64,000 nt of DNA. It comes from Escherichia phage HX01. Below are positions 2,803-43,901 of the stretch, piece by piece. Made by a program: the position numbers and the translations under genes. Each line of letters opens with the position of its first letter. Within the stretch, counting starts at the first letter, position 1. Under the pieces are notes generated by a model. It ran no database searches. It saw only the letters and a program-made list of their open reading frames with translations, and had not been told where the DNA came from. The stretch lies in sequence record NC_018855.1. One strand, 5' to 3'.

Positions 2803-3294
2803 TTATTCCCACCAATCAAGAGCAAGAGTTACTTCGAACGTTTCAATCTCGTTATTCGAATCCCAATCAAGAGATACTTCACCAACGTTAGTAGGCCACA
2901 AGCCGACAATTTCAACTTCTTTAGTGACCGTTTTAGCATCACGAGCAAATTGACGAACGATAGCAGTCTTTTTATATTCAGCAGGTTTACCACCGGTAAT
3001 TTCATTACCTTGTCCTGCTGCAATACCTTGCCAATCAACAAATTTCTGACGAATGCTATGAGCATCATCGTTCATTACTGTAATAGTCCAATCATCGAAT
3101 GTACGATCACCGGCCACGTTAATTTTACGGTTCATATAAGAAACAGGAACCTTTTCAACGATCGCAGCAGGAAGAGCCGTAGCACGACACTGGAAGCTAA
3201 AGTTTTGCCCAAGATAAGAGATTTCTACTTCGAACAGGTTAGGGCGAGCGAAATCACCTGATTCGAAGGCACGAGTTACGTCATCTACAAACAT
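2803..3294 (-). CDS. 19: Tail tube protein gp19
   Basis: 163 aa, same length as T4 gp19; synteny. Confidence 0.9.
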   Translation of the reverse strand: MFVDDVTRAFESGDFARPNLFEVEISYLGQNFSFQCRATALPAAIVEKVPVSYMNRKINVAGDRTFDDWTITVMNDDAHSIRQKFVDWQGIAAGQGNEITGGKPAEYKKTAIVRQFARDAKTVTKEVEIVGLWPTNVGEVSLDWDSNNEIETFEVTLALDWWE

Positions 3295-3366
3295 ATTAGC
3301 CTCTGTAGTAATATGGGCTTAGGATTAACCTGATGCCCATAGAATTAATTTTTAAACGATATAGTA

Positions 3367-3374
3367 TATTTATA
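3367..3374 (-). promoter_or_regulatory. T4-type late promoter (TATAAATA) for gene 19
   Basis: Minus-strand TATAAATA in the 18-19 intergenic region, next to a GGGCTA/TAGCCC hairpin. Confidence 0.6.
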
Positions 3375-3406
3375 TGGGCTACCGAAATAGCCCATCAGGC
3401 GTCTTA

Positions 3407-5389
3407 TTAGCCACTTACAGTACCAATTAGTTCGTCGAAATCGGCACCAGTTGCTGTTGCTACAAAGTTCAACGTAATATAATTTATCGAGCGGGCCGGT
3501 TGTAAGTAGAAAGTAGCTACAAATTCATTACGGTCGATAACTGCTGGGGTGTTATTGGTAGTATCACAAACAACTTTAAAGTTATATACACCACCAAGAG
3601 CTTTAATACCCTGTAGATATTGAGAAGTCTCTGTACGGAAAGAAGAACGGGTAAATGCGTTGTTCAATTCAAACAGGCGATATTTAGATGCTGAACCAAT
3701 GTTCGTTTTAACCATATTGAACAAACGACGAACGTTAATACGGTCAAATGGTGAAGGAACAGAAGTGGCAGTTTTATCACCATACAGAACATACCCGTCA
3801 CCACCGGTACCAGTAACAGGGTTAATAGCTTCCTGATACAAACGATCACGCTGTGGTTGGCGAGTTTCAATTGCAAGCTTAATAACGTTAAGAATTTGTC
3901 CACGATTATAACCGGCAGGAGACATCCAAGGCTGAGAAATATTGTCTGTGCGAGCACAAAGACCGGCGATATCAGCAGCTAACGGAACCCAACGATTCAC
4001 ATCATTATATTTATCATATTGATATTTATAGTTACCGTCAATAGCGGCATAAGTAGAACTTACATTAAAGTTATTATCAGTGTAAGTTCCTGACGCAGTA
4101 CGCCAATCAACCAGATTATCAACTGCACGATTAACAGGAATACCGACTATAGTTGCACGTGGTGGTGAGCAAAGAACCAAGCAATCTTGGCGAGAATCAC
4201 CAATTGCTACAACATGTTTCTGAACTGTAGAAGCAACTTCTAAAGATTCACCTGCACAAGAACCTGCAATAAACAACTGCGCATTAACAGATTCGCGGTC
4301 AGCAAACAAATCCCAAGCTTCCATTAAATCACCAGCGTCAACCGTTTCATTAGATGATAAGCCACCACCCAGTTTGATTACACCAGAGAAACCTTTTGGC
4401 CAACCTTGTGCAGTAGCGAAAATATAATTGCTTGCACCTTTAGCAAAGAAATCATCAATAAAGATATTACTACCATAAATATCGCGTTCACCACGTTTAG
4501 TAGAAAGAATTACGCTCTGAACTACAGCATCGTTACGACGAACGATAATTGCATATTGGTCATCAGTTTGTGGGCCATACCCAAAGATTGCTTTAGCAGT
4601 AGATGCACGAGTACCACCATCAGGATAAATTTTTAACTGGGCTGAAGCACCTTTGTCGTAGTCTGCTTTAGATACGATTTCAATTTCGAGCTGGTCGCCA
4701 AGTTCACCAGGATAAAGAGCAACTACGCCTGGGACACCATATTTTTTAATAGATTCTTGGAAAGTTAGAGAAGTAATAGCTTCTTCAGAAGTTTCAACTT
4801 CAGTTAACAGAATACCCGAATCGGTTACGATAGAACCAATTGTAATAACGCCAGAAAGTCCAGAAGAAGAACTGGCAACTTCGGCGGTCCAGTTAGAACC
4901 CAATGCCGGATATTCATTAATTTCTTTTGCACGAGCAATAATTTTACCGGTTGGGATATAAATGTTAAGAATTTTACCATCGACATCAACTGAAGTGACA
5001 TAACCATCTGCTTCAACAGTTTCGGTCAAATACTTAACGATAATTTTATCACCAACTGCATAGTTACTACCAGCAGCAGAGATTGTGAATTCAATATTGC
5101 CTGCTACAGGAGATGAGTTCTTAGCAGTATCACGGTCAACTGCGCGTACAACACGAAGGTCATTACCATATTGAAGGAAGTTCATAGCAGACATGAAATA
5201 ATCTGCTGTATCCGTATTAGGAGTACCAAACATATCAACTAACGCAACTTCATCAGTGATTTGTTTAATCTGGAATGCAGGTCCCCATTGGAATTTTCCA
5301 GCCAGGGCAGCAGTACCAGTGGAGTTATTAACTACAGTACTCTGTACGGTAGTTTCTTTGAGCTCAACGCCCGGAGAGAGAAGTGCCAT
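3407..5389 (-). CDS. 18: Tail sheath protein gp18
   Basis: 660 aa (T4 gp18 659 aa); synteny. Confidence 0.9.
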   Translation of the reverse strand: MALLSPGVELKETTVQSTVVNNSTGTAALAGKFQWGPAFQIKQITDEVALVDMFGTPNTDTADYFMSAMNFLQYGNDLRVVRAVDRDTAKNSSPVAGNIEFTISAAGSNYAVGDKIIVKYLTETVEADGYVTSVDVDGKILNIYIPTGKIIARAKEINEYPALGSNWTAEVASSSSGLSGVITIGSIVTDSGILLTEVETSEEAITSLTFQESIKKYGVPGVVALYPGELGDQLEIEIVSKADYDKGASAQLKIYPDGGTRASTAKAIFGYGPQTDDQYAIIVRRNDAVVQSVILSTKRGERDIYGSNIFIDDFFAKGASNYIFATAQGWPKGFSGVIKLGGGLSSNETVDAGDLMEAWDLFADRESVNAQLFIAGSCAGESLEVASTVQKHVVAIGDSRQDCLVLCSPPRATIVGIPVNRAVDNLVDWRTASGTYTDNNFNVSSTYAAIDGNYKYQYDKYNDVNRWVPLAADIAGLCARTDNISQPWMSPAGYNRGQILNVIKLAIETRQPQRDRLYQEAINPVTGTGGDGYVLYGDKTATSVPSPFDRINVRRLFNMVKTNIGSASKYRLFELNNAFTRSSFRTETSQYLQGIKALGGVYNFKVVCDTTNNTPAVIDRNEFVATFYLQPARSINYITLNFVATATGADFDELIGTVSG

Positions 5390-31994: not shown

Positions 31995-32069
31995 GGCCCT
32001 GTAGCTCAATGGGAGAGCTGTCAGCTCATAACTGATAGGTAGCTGGATCGAAACCAGCCAGGGTCACCA
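31995..32069 (+). tRNA. tRNA with CAU anticodon (Met or Ile2-type)
   Basis: Hand-folded cloverleaf: acceptor GGCCCTG/CAGGGTC, U8A9, D-arm GCTC/GAGC, anticodon loop CTCATAA, T-arm GCTGG/CCAGC, encoded CCA. Confidence 0.8.
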
Positions 32070-32072
32070 ATC

Positions 32073-32149
<77 letters not shown>

Positions 32150-40080: not shown

Positions 40081-40313
40081 GTATAGCAATTTACATTAAA
40101 TCAGAATCATGTGATTCTTATCTGTATTCCTATGATACCGGAACGTCAGAAGAGAAAATCAAAGAAGATTTAGAAAGCGACTTGGATATGTTCCGACCTA
40201 TTTCTGATTATATGGTCCAAATATCTGATAGTGAAAGTCCGTCAACAGAAACATGTGTTGAAATTATTATACGAGATATCTTTAAACAATCATGGGACCG
40301 AGATGATGAGTAA
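40077..40313 (+). CDS. Small acidic hypothetical protein
   Basis: 78 aa from ATG 40077; overlaps nudE start. Confidence 0.45.
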   Translation: MSIAIYIKSESCDSYLYSYDTGTSEEKIKEDLESDLDMFRPISDYMVQISDSESPSTETCVEIIIRDIFKQSWDRDDE

Positions 40314-40761
40314 GAAAAATAAAGTGAAAGAACTATCAGCCGGTATTATTTTCCTTACCGAAGATAAAGAATTATTCATGGGGCGTGTAACTGGTTCTCG
40401 TCCTAAAGGTTCTTTAGCTCATCGGTGGGATATTCCTAAAGGTCGTGTCGAGCCCGGTGAATCTCCTATCGAAGCCGCTATTCGTGAATGCGAAGAAGAA
40501 ACTGGGTTTACACAATATGACCCTGCCTTCCTGAAAGACCTAGGTGAACATCATTACTCAGACAATAAGAATATTCACCTGTTCCTATATACCATCCCTG
40601 TAGAGCACGAGCAATTCAGAAATAGTGTTTGTAATTCCTATCATACATTCCCAGACGGACGTCAGATTCCTGAATTTGATGCATTCGCTTTAATTAAACC
40701 TTCTCAATGGGAATATGTAATGGGCAAATCATTATATAAGGTGCTCACTACCCTCCTATAA
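40303..40761 (+). CDS. nudE: Nudix hydrolase NudE (e.1)
   Basis: Nudix box GRVEPGESPIEAAIRECEEETG; immediately upstream of e as in T4. Confidence 0.8.
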   Translation: MMSKKNKVKELSAGIIFLTEDKELFMGRVTGSRPKGSLAHRWDIPKGRVEPGESPIEAAIRECEEETGFTQYDPAFLKDLGEHHYSDNKNIHLFLYTIPVEHEQFRNSVCNSYHTFPDGRQIPEFDAFALIKPSQWEYVMGKSLYKVLTTLL

Positions 40762-40795: not shown

Positions 40796-41284
40796 ATGAA
40801 TATATTTGAAATGCTTCGTAATGACGAAGGTCTTAGACTGACTTTATACAAAGACACTGAAGGCTTTTGGACGATTGGCATAGGCCATTTAGTAACAAAG
40901 AACCCATCTTTAGCCGTAGCTAAAGCTGAACTTGACAGAATGATCGGCCGTAAATGCAACGGTACAATTACCCTTGATGAGGCTGAAAAGCTATTTAATG
41001 AAGACGTTGATAAAGCCGTTCGCGGAATCTTGGGTAATGCTAAACTTAAACCGGTATACGATTCTTTAGATGCGGTTCGTCGTTGTGCATTGGTCAATAT
41101 GGTCTTCCAAATGGGTGTAGCAGGCGTCGCCGGTTTTACTAATTCTCTTCGTATGCTTCAACAGAAACGTTGGGACGAAGCGGCAGTAAATCTAGCCCAA
41201 TCTAAATGGTATCGTCAGACACCCAATCGCGCGAAACGCGTAATATCAACATTTAAAACAGGAACTTGGAAAGCGTATATATGA
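40796..41284 (+). CDS. e: Endolysin (T4 lysozyme) gpe
   Basis: [32 protein letters not shown]... very close to T4 lysozyme by recall. Confidence 0.92.
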
Positions 41285-41549
41285 AAACATATAGTGAATT
41301 TTTATCAGAATCTATTCTTAACGAAGCTACTGACACATTTGCAACTAAGTTAGGTGCAGCTTTGGTTGAAGCCGAAAGTCTATTAGCACGTATTTTAAGA
41401 TAGATACTCGCAAATTTGAACGTACCAGTGATATCGTTAAGCTTGAAGCCTTGTTGCGTATGTGTGATAAACCGGAAGAAATCGCTAAGAACGGCTCGCT
41501 GATGAAACAACGTCTTGAAAAATATATTTCAGGCGCTTCAGAAAAATAG
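41281..41549 (+). pseudogene. Internal-protein-like gene interrupted by a frameshift
   Basis: [10 protein letters not shown] capsid-targeting-like start, in-frame TAG at 41401 after 40 codons, coding continues in the -1 frame for 48 codons to 41549. Confidence 0.45.
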
Positions 41550-41550
41550 T

Positions 41551-41605
41551 GTTTACTTCCTCCAAGGGTTTTGATACTATACATTCATCAACTACTTGGA
41601 GGAAA
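41551..41605 (+). promoter_or_regulatory. T4-type early promoter with long stem-loop enclosing -10 and denV RBS
   Basis: GTTTAC, 18-nt spacer, TACTAT; 10-bp inverted repeat TTCCTCCAAG...CTTGGAGGAA whose 3' arm is the SD. Confidence 0.55.
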
Positions 41606-41607
41606 TT

Positions 41608-42021
41608 ATGACTCGTATCAATTTAACACTTGTTTCTGAACTGACCGACCAACATCTTATGGCTGAGTATCGTGAATTACCACGCGTATTTGGTGCAGTC
41701 CGTAAACATGTTCAAAACGGTAAACGTGTAAAGGATTTTAAAATCTCCCCGACATTTATCTTAGGCACAGGTCATGTAACATTCTTTTACGACAAACTCG
41801 AATTTTTACGTTTACGTCAAATCGAGCTAATCGCTGAATGCTTGAAACGTGGTTTCAAAATCAAGGACACGACTGTCCAAGATATTTCCGACATCCCTGC
41901 CGAATTTCGTAATAATTATGTCCCGACCGAAGCGTCCATTGCGATAAGTCAAGCTCGTTTAGATGAAAAAATTGCTCAACGTCCTACTTGGTACAAATAC
42001 TATGGTAAATCAATTTACTAA
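41608..42021 (+). CDS. denV: Endonuclease V (pyrimidine-dimer glycosylase) DenV
   Basis: [34 protein letters not shown]... matches T4 endo V by recall. Confidence 0.92.
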
Positions 42022-42052
42022 GGAAAAAGGTTGCGATGGTAAAGCTTAAACA

Positions 42053-42082
42053 GTTTACGCTTAAGTATTAATATGGTATAAT
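42053..42082 (+). promoter_or_regulatory. T4-type early promoter
   Basis: GTTTAC, 18-nt spacer, TATAAT. Confidence 0.55.
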
Positions 42083-42112
42083 TACTCTATCAAAACAAAC
42101 AAGGAAACAAAA

Positions 42113-42415
42113 ATGAAAACATATCAAGAATTTATTACTGAAGCGCGAGTGAGTGCAGGTAAATTAGAAGCCGCTATAAATAAAAAGGCCCATTCATTTC
42201 ACGATTTGTCCGATAAAGACCGTAAGAAACTTGTAAGCCTTTATATTGACAAAGAGCGTATTCTCGCTCTTCCTGGCGCTAATGAAGGTAAACAGGCCAA
42301 GCCTTTGAATGCTGTTGAAAAGAAAATTGATAACTTTGCTTCTAAATTCGGTATGTCTATGGATGACCTTCAGCAAGCGGCTATCGAAGCAGCTAAAGTA
42401 ATTAAAGGTAAATAA
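42113..42415 (+). CDS. ipII: Internal protein II-like (capsid-targeted)
   Basis: 100 aa starting MKTYQEFITEA (canonical capsid-targeting sequence). Confidence 0.65.
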   Translation: MKTYQEFITEARVSAGKLEAAINKKAHSFHDLSDKDRKKLVSLYIDKERILALPGANEGKQAKPLNAVEKKIDNFASKFGMSMDDLQQAAIEAAKVIKGK

Positions 42416-42417
42416 CA

Positions 42418-42470
42418 GTTTACTTTCTCCTAGAATTGTGATAGTATAATCATAATTACTTGGAGAGGTA
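42418..42470 (+). promoter_or_regulatory. Early promoter/stem-loop duplicate driving a denV remnant
   Basis: GTTTAC ... TATAAT ... TTGGAGAGG, homologous to the denV promoter. Confidence 0.5.
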
Positions 42471-42472
42471 AA

Positions 42473-42525
42473 ATGACTCGATGAAAAAATTTTAATGAAG
42501 CCACACTGGTATAAGTATTAAGGCA
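42473..42525 (+). pseudogene. denV remnant (5' start fused to degraded 3' end)
   Basis: ATGACTCG (as denV start) then TGA after 3 codons; following GATGAAAAAATT...CACTGGTATAAGTAT matches denV 3' end DNA. Confidence 0.4.
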
Positions 42526-42687
42526 AAAATATTTACATTCAAATAACATGGGAACAAGCTGGACCTCATGATTCTATGAGGGATTCCCGCCAACCTGTAA
42601 TAAGGTCGAGTCCAAGTGCGGTAATGGGTAAATACAGAAATGGACAATTCATGTGCCATGGAATGGCCCAAACTTAGAGAGAACAAA

Positions 42688-43227
42688 ATGAAAACATTTT
42701 TAACTGGACCTTATCTATCCCTGATGAATGCTTTTACACACCATTCTGATGCTAGAGTAGAAGAAATTTGTAAGAACGGTTATGTCCCACCATTTGAAGA
42801 CATACTCAAGCAGTACTGTACACTTCGTTTAGACGGTGGCAGACAATCAGGTAAATCCACTGCAGTAACTAATTTTGCTGCTAATTGGCTGCACGACGAT
42901 GGAACAGTTATTGTTCTTTCTAATACTTCAGCTTATGCTAAAATTTCTGCTGGCAACATTAAAAAAGAATTTTCTCGTTATTCTAGCGACGATATTCGAT
43001 TCCGTTTATTTACTGATTCTGTCCGTAGTTTTATTGGCAATGAAGGTTCTAAATTCCGTGGATTAACGCTTTCTCGTATTCTGTATATAATTGACGAGCC
43101 TATTAAAGCTCCTGATATGGATAAGATTTACAACATACATATTAAAACAGTCCAACACTGTTGCAAAAGCAAATATTGCATCAGTGGTATTGCTCGTCCT
43201 CAATTTTTTGTGATTGGAATGCAATGA
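42688..43227 (+). CDS. P-loop NTPase, function unknown
   Basis: 179 aa; Walker A GGRQSGKST and Walker B-like LYIIDE. Confidence 0.6.
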   Translation: MKTFLTGPYLSLMNAFTHHSDARVEEICKNGYVPPFEDILKQYCTLRLDGGRQSGKSTAVTNFAANWLHDDGTVIVLSNTSAYAKISAGNIKKEFSRYSSDDIRFRLFTDSVRSFIGNEGSKFRGLTLSRILYIIDEPIKAPDMDKIYNIHIKTVQHCCKSKYCISGIARPQFFVIGMQ

Positions 43228-43532
43228 TGACCACTATTGAAGTTTTTGAGTATTGTTATAACAGCCCAGTATGCAATAAAAGGGCTCTTGTAGAAAATTA
43301 TGAGATTTACCATTTTAAACCTAAACGATACCGTTTGACTAAAGGTCCGTTCGCAGGGCAGCAGGTTCTTTGTACTGCTCCTAATGCACGGTTGATGACT
43401 AGTATTCCGCATTTCAAAATGGAATTTATTGATGGGCCATTTAAAGGATTAATCACTCAAAGTTTAATGGCGTTTAATTCCGACCCATTTTTGATTAAAG
43501 AAAAAACTTGGATAAATTTATTTTCTAATTGA
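43224..43532 (+). CDS. Hypothetical protein
   Basis: 102 aa, ATGATGA overlap with upstream stop. Confidence 0.5.
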   Translation: MMTTIEVFEYCYNSPVCNKRALVENYEIYHFKPKRYRLTKGPFAGQQVLCTAPNARLMTSIPHFKMEFIDGPFKGLITQSLMAFNSDPFLIKEKTWINLFSN

Positions 43533-43538
43533 GGTTAT

Positions 43539-43901
43539 ATGAAAGCATATCAAATTCTTGAAGGTGTACATAAAGGCACTATTTATTTTGAAGACGGTAC
43601 TCAAGCCCGGATTATCGTCTCTAAGACTTTTAAAGAAGACGCTATTGTAGACCCGGAAATTTTCTACGGTTTGAATGCCCGTGAAATTGAAATTGAACAT
43701 CAACCTAAAGTTAAAATTGAAGGTGGTCAACACCTGAACGTTAACGTTCTGCGTCGTGAAACTCTGGAAGATGCAGTTAAGCATCCGGAAAAATATCCGC
43801 AGCTGACCATCCGTGTATCCGGTTATGCAGTTCGCTTTAACTCTCTGACTCCGGAACAGCAGCGCGACGTTATCGCTCGGACATTTACCGAGAGTCTATA
43901 A
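43539..43901 (+). CDS. Autonomous glycyl-radical cofactor GrcA/YfiD-like
   Basis: C-terminal half ...[49 protein letters not shown] matches E. coli GrcA by recall incl. RVSGY glycine-radical motif; enterobacterial-like codons. Confidence 0.85.

Follow-up and report, generated by a model that had tools for sequence, protein, structure and literature searches.

What occupies the interval between the ipII and vs.8 genes of Escherichia phage HX01? We analysed a 64,000-nucleotide (nt) stretch of its genome (NC_018855.1, one strand, 5′ to 3′; hereafter "the window"), in which positions 42418-42687 had been described, in an earlier note made from the letters alone, as the relic of a second denV gene: a duplicated promoter and gene start fused to a degraded 3′ end, and followed by about 160 nt of unexplained non-coding DNA. 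The window carries an intact, resident denV upstream of ipII (41608-42021, + strand), encoding endonuclease V of 137 amino acids (aa; PHROG 1183, E = 1e-62). We consider it highly probable that the interval contains both a dead second denV, the "denV ghost" (42473-42542), and, immediately behind it, a gene-like small structured RNA (42550-42670).

The strings on which the description of the ghost was based were all found at their positions in the window. The start of the ghost, ATGACTCG (42473-42480), is identical to 41608-41615 in the resident gene, and the frame that it opens reads ATG ACT CGA TGA, which is the proposed stop after three codons. The match to the denV 3′ end is equally clear, with GATGAAAAAATT (42480-42491) equal to the resident gene at 41962-41973 in 12 of 12 positions; CACTGGTATAAGTAT is located at 42503-42517. 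Just upstream, AATTACTTGGAG (42454-42465) agrees with 41590-41601 at 11 of 12 positions. The 3′ remnant was present as claimed, but did not end at 42525, as AAAAATATTTACATT still codes for a C-terminus of ...GKNIYI and, because the original stop codon has been lost, the relic reaches 42542. The ghost on the + strand therefore comprises the first 8 nt of the gene followed by its last 62 nt (42481-42542).

The origin of this arrangement was apparent from a four-way alignment that included the intact 417-nt denV found at the same position in vB_VIPECOOM01, a Tequatrovirus. This allele has a near-identical promoter and Shine–Dalgarno (SD) block, ends in ...GATGAAAAAATTTTAATGAAGCCGCACTGGTATAAGTATTACGGCAAAAATATTTACATTTAA, and is intact behind the same promoter in four records. 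Compared with it, the window lacks nt 9-355, a deletion of 347 base pairs (bp) flanked in the intact allele by the 6-bp direct repeat GACTCG (nt 3-8 and 350-355), and GACTCG is found at the ghost junction (42475-42480). Not being divisible by three, a loss of 347 bp also accounts for the three-codon frame. The first 8 nt of the ghost are identical to those of the vB_VIPECOOM01 allele and its 3′ block matches the end of that allele in 57 of 60 nt and 19 of 20 codons; when the two pieces were joined, the BLAST E-value was 3e-24, which puts the likeness well outside what chance would give. Homology thus extends into the denV coding sequence, rather than being confined to the promoter and ribosome-binding module, and the reading as an internal-deletion scar is borne out. 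What did not survive is the idea of a duplicated resident gene. The ghost resembles the resident denV only loosely and derives from a different allele, which is 69% identical to the resident gene at the nucleotide level, and it is therefore not a recent duplicate. Since the deletion, a nonsense change (TAC to TAA) has arisen at 42518-42520 and the former stop codon now reads CAA instead of TAA (42540-42542), such that the remnant codes for DEKILMKPHWYKY*GKNIYI, compared with DEKILMKPHWYKYYGKNIYI* in the intact allele (* marks a stop).

The same remnant was detected by tblastn in the near-identical phage ZQ3, and the junction is collinear in 16 GenBank phage records (95-100% identity), where it is annotated either as nothing, or as "hypothetical protein". 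Given these 16 records, the junction is no assembly artefact, and the GACTCG-bounded loss reads as the signature of slippage or microhomology-mediated deletion. The vB_VIPECOOM01-type 3′ end is found inside an intact gene in ~170 Tequatrovirus records. The catalytic residues of T4 endonuclease V are Thr2, through its N-terminal amino group, and Glu23. Codons 4-118, including that for Glu23, are gone from the ghost, which with 347 of 417 nt missing has no intact open reading frame (ORF) of ~138 aa. Judged by its sequence, we classify the ghost as a denV-family pseudogene, in which homology is retained and the ORF and catalytic residues of the functional members are gone.

The ghost is preceded by an early-promoter-like and SD block (42418-42472, + strand). 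In it, TTTACT (42419-42424) and TAGTAT (42442-42447) are separated by a 17-nt spacer, the imperfectly matching arms TCTCCTAG / CTTGGAGA form an inverted repeat at 42426-42433 / 42459-42466, and the SD sequence is GGAG, at 42462-42465. As to the second early promoter proposed earlier, 42418-42448 shares 81% identity over 31 nt with 41551-41581, and promoter activity is a prediction. The latter segment belongs to the promoter/SD block of the resident denV (41551-41607, + strand), which holds an equivalent inverted repeat; the ghost block is also nearly identical to that preceding the intact vB_VIPECOOM01 denV, and to that of JS09. Early promoters of the PeSL (early promoter plus stem-loop) cassettes of phages T4 and PST follow the pattern TTTACW-N17-TAYWAT (PMC4122927), from which the ghost block, TTTACT-N17-TAGTAT, departs by one base, a G for Y in the −10 hexamer. 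In a generic sigma-70 scan, the block was under threshold and was not reported. A PeSL-type stem-loop and a border of variable ORFs in the hyperplastic region are both present at the ghost block. A part in the modular shuffling of T4-type phage genomes has been suggested for such cassettes (Arbiol et al., 2010, PMC2839356; Comeau et al., 2014, PMC4122927).

It might be asked if the likeness to denV reflects nothing more than a shared regulatory cassette of the PeSL type, plus chance, and that there never was a second denV. The similarity of the promoter/SD blocks at the two loci, and the repetition of such cassettes in T4-type genomes (PMC2839356, PMC4122927), are what that explanation would predict. 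However, it is refuted by the intact denV that fills the same slot in T4 and in vB_VIPECOOM01, nearly all of whose last 60 nt the window shares, and by JS09, which keeps another part of the same allele (nt 1-105), and we give it practically no chance of being correct. The ghost locus resembles PeSL cassettes in that a repeated block of early promoter and stem-loop bounds variable genes in a hyperplastic region, but differs from them in that the deletions end at 5-6-bp microhomologies inside denV or the RNA element, and not in the cassettes. The gene order in T4 is ipIII, ipII, denV, vs.8, so that the ghost occupies the slot of T4's only denV (ipII to denV to vs.8). The resident denV, which shares 79% nucleotide identity with T4 denV and 69% with the vB_VIPECOOM01 allele, sits upstream of ipII, in the RB69/Mosigvirus position. 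PeSL-like blocks may explain why denV is found on either side of ipII in different phages.

Three further deletion alleles of this locus are present in phage records, each of them bounded by a 5-6-bp repeat. JS09 and four relatives have lost 292 bp between GGCAAA repeats, while keeping nt 1-105, and the JS09 relic is already annotated in GenBank as a DenV fragment (JS09_060). Phage 132 and its relatives have lost 507 bp between GGTAAA repeats, and TB004 (a Shigella phage of the genus Tequatrovirus; L084 2570-2793) has lost 187 bp between AATGG repeats inside a denV at the T4 position. The intact upstream denV is kept in the window, ZQ3, JS09 and phage 132. In TB004, no intact denV was present in the 2.5 kb upstream that was examined. 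Redundancy is therefore not required for loss, and this phage may have no endonuclease V at all. Close relatives differ in their gene content at the locus, and the ghost is a case of ordinary gene decay within a hyperplastic region. The window's ghost is homologous to T4 denV and lies in the T4 slot, and JS09_060 is another truncated relic of the same allele. It differs from both in how little is left, 8 nt at the 5′ end and 62 nt at the 3′ end, from which no enzyme is possible, and from JS09_060 also in that the window's deletion allele is unannotated, or called "hypothetical protein", in its 16 records. Taken alone, the ghost flags an unannotated pseudogene, which is routine. Together, the four independent alleles at one locus document T-even phages shedding redundant accessory genes by microhomology-mediated deletion.

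In our reading, this Mosigvirus has its working denV upstream of ipII, as well as a T4-type module of ipII, promoter, denV, RNA element and vs.8 with a divergent denV. The second denV lost 347 bp in a single step, through slippage or illegitimate recombination between the GACTCG repeats. This left the promoter/SD block, the three-codon mini-ORF and a 62-nt piece from the 3′ end, in which a nonsense change later arose. Because denV is dispensable and redundant here, the deletion was tolerated and came to be inherited by a clade of phages.

The DNA that follows the ghost, previously considered unexplained, instead holds a conserved structured RNA element of ~121 nt (42550-42670, + strand), defined by covariation and by a covariance model of its core. 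Positions 42550-42670 are almost invariant among T4, vB_VIPECOOM01, JS09 and the window, in marked contrast to the flanking denV alleles, which are only ~70% identical. A 151-nt query matched 1,065 phage records. The core, ACCUGUAA[U/A/C]AAGGUCGAG-N5-7-[G/A/C]CGGUAA (window 42593-42624), is found at ~90% identity in unrelated phages, including Vequintavirus (Vequintavirinae), the N4-like Schitoviridae phage KpCHEMY26, Vibrio phage F98 and Karamvirus, and in many IMG/VR and metagenome contigs. The core covariance model identified a single copy in the window (69.1 bits, E = 1.3e-18), and no additional copies were found there. A host origin of the element was considered and rejected, since it had no match in 5,426 E. 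coli genomes and its exact core had none in 185,579 genomes of bacterial and archaeal species. In one Karamvirus-like contig (L089 5089-5253, − strand) there are two tandem copies between denV and vs.8, the second of which has diverged (44.9 bits).

The proposed fold, on the + strand, begins with helix P1 (42550-42554 / 42584-42588), a long-range helix that encloses an internal loop and hairpin P2 (42564-42569 / 42576-42581). P2 is the CCTCAT/ATGAGG hairpin that the earlier note had correctly pointed out. The segment J1/2 (42555-42563) contains the 5′ strand of a pseudoknot (CUG, 42559-42561), through which the internal loop of the 5′ domain pairs with the tail located 3′ of P3 (CAG, 42635-42637). 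P3 itself is formed by the four nucleotides 5′ of ACCUG (42589-42592) with the five nucleotides 3′ of GGUAA, one purine being bulged (42625 and 42627-42629, with G42626 bulged), and it flanks the near-invariant core (42593-42624). A 3′ hairpin is found at 42655-42659 / 42663-42667.

Compensatory changes back P1, P2, P3, the core hairpin and the pseudoknot. The strands of P1 are GGGAA/UUCCC in T4, GUACC/GGUAC in F98, and GGGAG/CUCCC, AAAGG/CCUUU, AAAGC/GCUUU or AAAGA/UCUUU in other T4-like phages, and P2 has the variant CCUUAU/AUAAGG. The pseudoknot, which is CUG/CAG in T4, is replaced by CCG/CGG, ACAC/GUGU, CGC/GCG or AAACCG/CGGUUU in other T4-likes and, outside them, by GAAG/CUUC (F98), CCAG/CUGG (Vequintavirus) or GGGUA/UACCC (L042). 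P3 is fully compensated in Karamvirus (UGGU/A[G]CCA). In the second tandem copy of L089, the core hairpin has swapped an A:U for a G:C pair (ACCU/AGGU to GCCU/AGGC). A script check showed that 14 lineages with unrelated P1, P2 and pseudoknot sequences all fit one order of elements.

Shuffling and sliding controls gave the same picture. In 29 diverse sequences, three P3 pairs were always formed (AU/UA/UG/CG; CG/UA; CG/GC/AU) and 87.6% of cells were paired, compared with 69% after shuffling (a value of 87.6% was reached in 0 of 500 shuffles) and 32-54% when the partner strand was slid; the P3 covariation score was likewise reached by 0 of 500 shuffles. For the whole structure, pseudoknot included, 92.3% of cells were paired in 13 JS98-type sequences, versus 25-45% when slid, and the covariation score was 0.186 versus 0.056 in the shuffled alignments (0/500). 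The two central pseudoknot pairs were unbroken in these 13 sequences (CG7/AU4/GC2 and GC7/CG6). RNAalifold, applied to a MAFFT alignment, missed P1, owing to the pseudoknot, and revealed the pseudoknot helix. In the variable core segment (6-7 nt), support was limited to the closing pair (columns 29:36 of alignment A3; CG/UA/UG, plus G:C in L092), and a conserved hairpin in this segment was rejected, as the other registers that were tried were inconsistent.

Several observations have to be set against a functional, independently acting RNA. The single-sequence minimum free energy is unremarkable (z = 0.28 on the + strand and −0.44 on the − strand); folding energy is therefore uninformative, and the structural case rests on covariation and comparison, which is uninformative in turn for the fold of the invariant core itself. 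Alignments A3 and A5 hold related sequences, which inflates the shuffle statistics, and for non-T4 lineages every helix except P3 was placed by eye before being checked by script. The 507-bp allele of phage 132 and its relatives strips the 5′ two-thirds of the element, core included, and the element is therefore dispensable, rather than essential. Finally, in T4-like phages the element always lies directly 5′ of a gene, as might be expected of an element that acts in cis.

The earlier statement that the 160 nt contain no ORF proved incorrect, as there is a 33-aa ORF on the + strand (42576-42677; product MRDSRQPVIRSSPSAVMGKYRNGQFMCHGMAQT) and a 64-aa ORF on the − strand. The element might accordingly be thought to encode a small protein in the 33-aa frame, which is fused to vs.8 in T4. 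In the window, T4, L018, JS98, L020, L050 and L069, that frame is uninterrupted and preceded by a start, and Pyrodigal extends T4 vs.8 across it. However, in F98 and L042 a stop codon falls within the core, while L015, RZH, both Vequintavirus types, L064 and L079 have no start codon upstream, and the frame is out of phase with vs.8 in the window, JS09 and vB_VIPECOOM01. Furthermore, the substitutions are compensatory in helices, not synonymous, and no frame on either strand combined an upstream start with an uninterrupted reading in every one of the 15 lineages. A protein-coding role therefore seems very improbable. In the T4 record OZ209057.1 (L003 1470-2120), the automatically annotated vs.8 coding sequence runs 5′ across the element from an AUG inside P2, and in many other phage records a "hypothetical protein" is placed on the element; these annotations are likely to be misannotations.

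One could also imagine that conservation acts on the DNA, for example at a recombination, homing or protein-binding site, since the locus is hyperplastic and prone to recombination, and deletions repeatedly end in or near the element. The compensatory helices argue otherwise, as do the G:U pairs, which are sensible only when the + strand is read (the opposite strand would have A·C mismatches in their place), and the orientation of the element, which always follows local transcription and the tRNA genes. We attach very little weight to selection on the DNA.

To what family might such an RNA belong? In Rfam 15 (4227 models), there was no match at E ≤ 1 in window positions 41000-43500, and none on the element in six non-T4 loci; when the whole window was scanned, two tRNAs alone reached the gathering score. 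With ARAGORN and the Rfam tRNA model, tRNAs were located in the window only at 31995-32149, and none overlapped the element in the other loci. A literature search yielded no paper with the core sequence or a denV-vs.8 RNA, the supplements of a catalogue of 10,006 candidate viral structured RNAs (PMC10690425), and any motif with GUAAUAAGGUCGAG in them, being outside its reach, and the priority of the discovery is therefore uncertain. Two specific relationships were evaluated and discarded. The first was paralogy with T4 rnaC/rnaD, as the core model, run with filters off, gave nothing better than E = 3 in the T4 tRNA/rnaC/rnaD region (L082), where these two RNAs are encoded beside tRNA-Arg. The second was mimicry of 16S rRNA, suggested by the resemblance of the core GUAAUAAGGU to 16S nt 1497-1506. 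Local alignment to either strand of the E. coli rrnH operon gave a score lower than the average for 300 shuffled sequences, and we treat the likeness as due to chance.

The element belongs among the orphan structured phage RNAs. Like T4 rnaC and rnaD (species 2 and 1), it is a small, tRNA-associated non-coding RNA of a virulent phage with no known function; unlike them, it lies outside the tRNA cluster in T4-like phages, and it shares no sequence or structural similarity with them. GOLLD and ROOL are likewise phage-borne RNAs that are associated with tRNA clusters and have no known function, but they are 500-800 nt long with Rfam models of their own, which gave no match, whereas the element is ~120-150 nt. 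With preQ1-II, SAM-II, pistol and twister, it has in common a pseudoknot between a hairpin loop and a downstream strand, a conserved core and variable outer helices, but it differs in having no Rfam 15 match and no consistent downstream gene or expression platform.

The genomic context of the element varies between phage groups. In T4-like phages, it is preceded by denV or an ip gene and followed by vs.8 in nearly all cases, or else by a further ip gene, and in other phage families it is mostly in or next to tRNA clusters and on the same strand. The neighbouring proteins are unrelated across families. In Vequintavirus, a repeated intergenic motif, CCCNUAGAGGGCUUGANAGUGC, flanks the element (L005 ~2405-2440; L045 ~50-80 and ~190-215), and a different one, AGUGCUNUUUCCGUUGUG, does so in the KpCHEMY26-like contig group (L087/L088/L090/L093/L064, alignment A8). 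Both repeats look like phage-specific promoters or processing sites, and a position between repeated promoter-like motifs suggests a separate small transcription unit. The Vequintavirus-like contig L045 additionally has a group I intron (3115-3418; RF00028, 81 bits) ~3 kb downstream of the element. N4-like phages rely on polymerases of their own for early and middle transcription. A put-like element that would act on the host RNA polymerase upstream of tRNA clusters is weakened as a candidate by the N4-like occurrence, and by the promoter-like repeats that lie between the element and the tRNAs.

These contexts bear directly on the suggestion that the element is a cis-acting leader of vs.8, either riboswitch-like or a translational operator. 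Such a role would account for the fact that the T4-like element always stops ~20 nt short of a start codon, which in most cases belongs to vs.8, and an invariant core locked by a pseudoknot resembles an aptamer. In addition, the window core AUAAGGUCGAGU (42600-42611) is complementary at 11 of 12 positions to 42703-42714, which are vs.8 codons 6-9. However, T4 and JS98-type phages do not share this complementarity, and it was dismissed as probably fortuitous; an ip gene replaces vs.8 downstream in some T4-likes; and Vequintavirus, Schitoviridae and other contigs have downstream tRNAs, a promoter-like motif or ORFs unrelated to vs.8. A riboswitch would be expected to have a conserved core held by covarying helices, which is present, and a consistent class of downstream genes together with an expression platform, neither of which was seen (vs.8, ip genes, promoter-like repeats and tRNAs all follow the element). 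We regard the leader as unlikely, while still according it appreciable weight. As a separate observation, CUGGACCUCAU (42559-42569) recurs inside vs.8 as CUGGACCUUAU.

The frequent placement in or near tRNA clusters, where transcripts need processing, also raises the prospect of a self-cleaving ribozyme, or some other processing signal for polycistronic or tRNA-cluster transcripts. The compact pseudoknotted fold with ~33 invariant nucleotides would suit such an activity, but no known ribozyme family matched at E ≤ 1 and the sequence identifies no cleavage site, and we think a ribozyme or processing signal improbable, and more so than a leader.

Our best guess is that the element is a stand-alone, trans-acting, structured small RNA. 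The occurrence of the same RNA in T4 and in unrelated families, near tRNA clusters and between promoter-like motifs, makes this the most likely role. In the window, the old denV promoter block, 77 nt upstream, probably now serves the RNA element and vs.8, and as the surviving promoter it would drive production of the RNA. The transcript would fold into a 5′ hairpin domain (P1/P2), followed by P3, with its bulged purine, around a 38-nt near-invariant core, with the pseudoknot joining the internal loop of the 5′ domain to the tail beyond P3. It would then be cut from, or be transcribed apart from, the early message and act in trans, with the invariant core binding either a small ligand or a partner, of host or phage origin, that is itself conserved. 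Of all this, homology, deletion junctions, covariation, distribution and dispensability were observed, and transcription, processing and any binding are steps that we infer.

We would further suggest, tentatively and as something less than an even bet, that the element is the founding member of an undescribed class of phage RNA shared by T4, Straboviridae, Vequintavirinae, Schitoviridae and Vibrio phages. If that were true, the pseudoknot-locked core might sense a ligand, catalyse a reaction, or sequester or modify a host factor involved in translation, tRNA processing or defence, and the element would represent a new riboswitch, ribozyme or decoy class, and no passive structured spacer. Whichever of these applies, a stretch that has been taken as spacer, or mistranslated as part of vs.8 or as a "hypothetical protein", holds a covariation-supported, pseudoknotted RNA. 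T4, which has been studied more than any other virulent phage, carries it, as do at least four further phage groups, and it is missing from Rfam 15 and from the literature that our search covered. If expressed, it would offer T4 genetics a directly testable new non-coding RNA, for which natural knock-outs (phage 132 and its relatives) already exist in collections; PTE-Eco05 and pSe_SNUABM_01 are natural deletion phages as well. The element may also be relevant to what stable RNAs do in phage tRNA clusters, a long-standing puzzle.

The wider locus is that of an RB69/JS09-like T-even phage of the genus Mosigvirus (Tevenvirinae), and is 98% identical to Escherichia phage vB_EcoM-ZQ3 and also close to vB_EcoM_JS09 (both Mosigvirus). 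Every gene in the region around the ghost is on the + strand. Upstream of the resident denV are nudE (40231-40761), the lysozyme gene e (40796-41284) and, between e and denV, a small ip-like gene (41281-41549). The resident denV is followed by ipII (42113-42415; PHROG 7857, E = 4.5e-55), which encodes an internal virion protein and is named IpII in JS09. Beyond the RNA element lie vs.8 (42688-43227; PHROG 1488, E = 4e-78), vs.7 and the GrcA-like vs.6 (43539-43901), with vs.7 between the other two. The vs.8 product is P-loop NTPase-like; its matches to Terminase_6N and AAA_14 are weak and under the Pfam cut-offs. A translation-start region of 13 nt, AAAATGAAAACAT, is identical at ipII (42110-42122) and vs.8 (42685-42697). 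Relative to ZQ3 and JS09, the ip-like gene lacks 13 bp (CTGAACTTGCTAG, after 41395), which shifts the frame and leads to a stop at 41401-41403, and this gene is either a second pseudogene of the phage or the result of a sequencing error.

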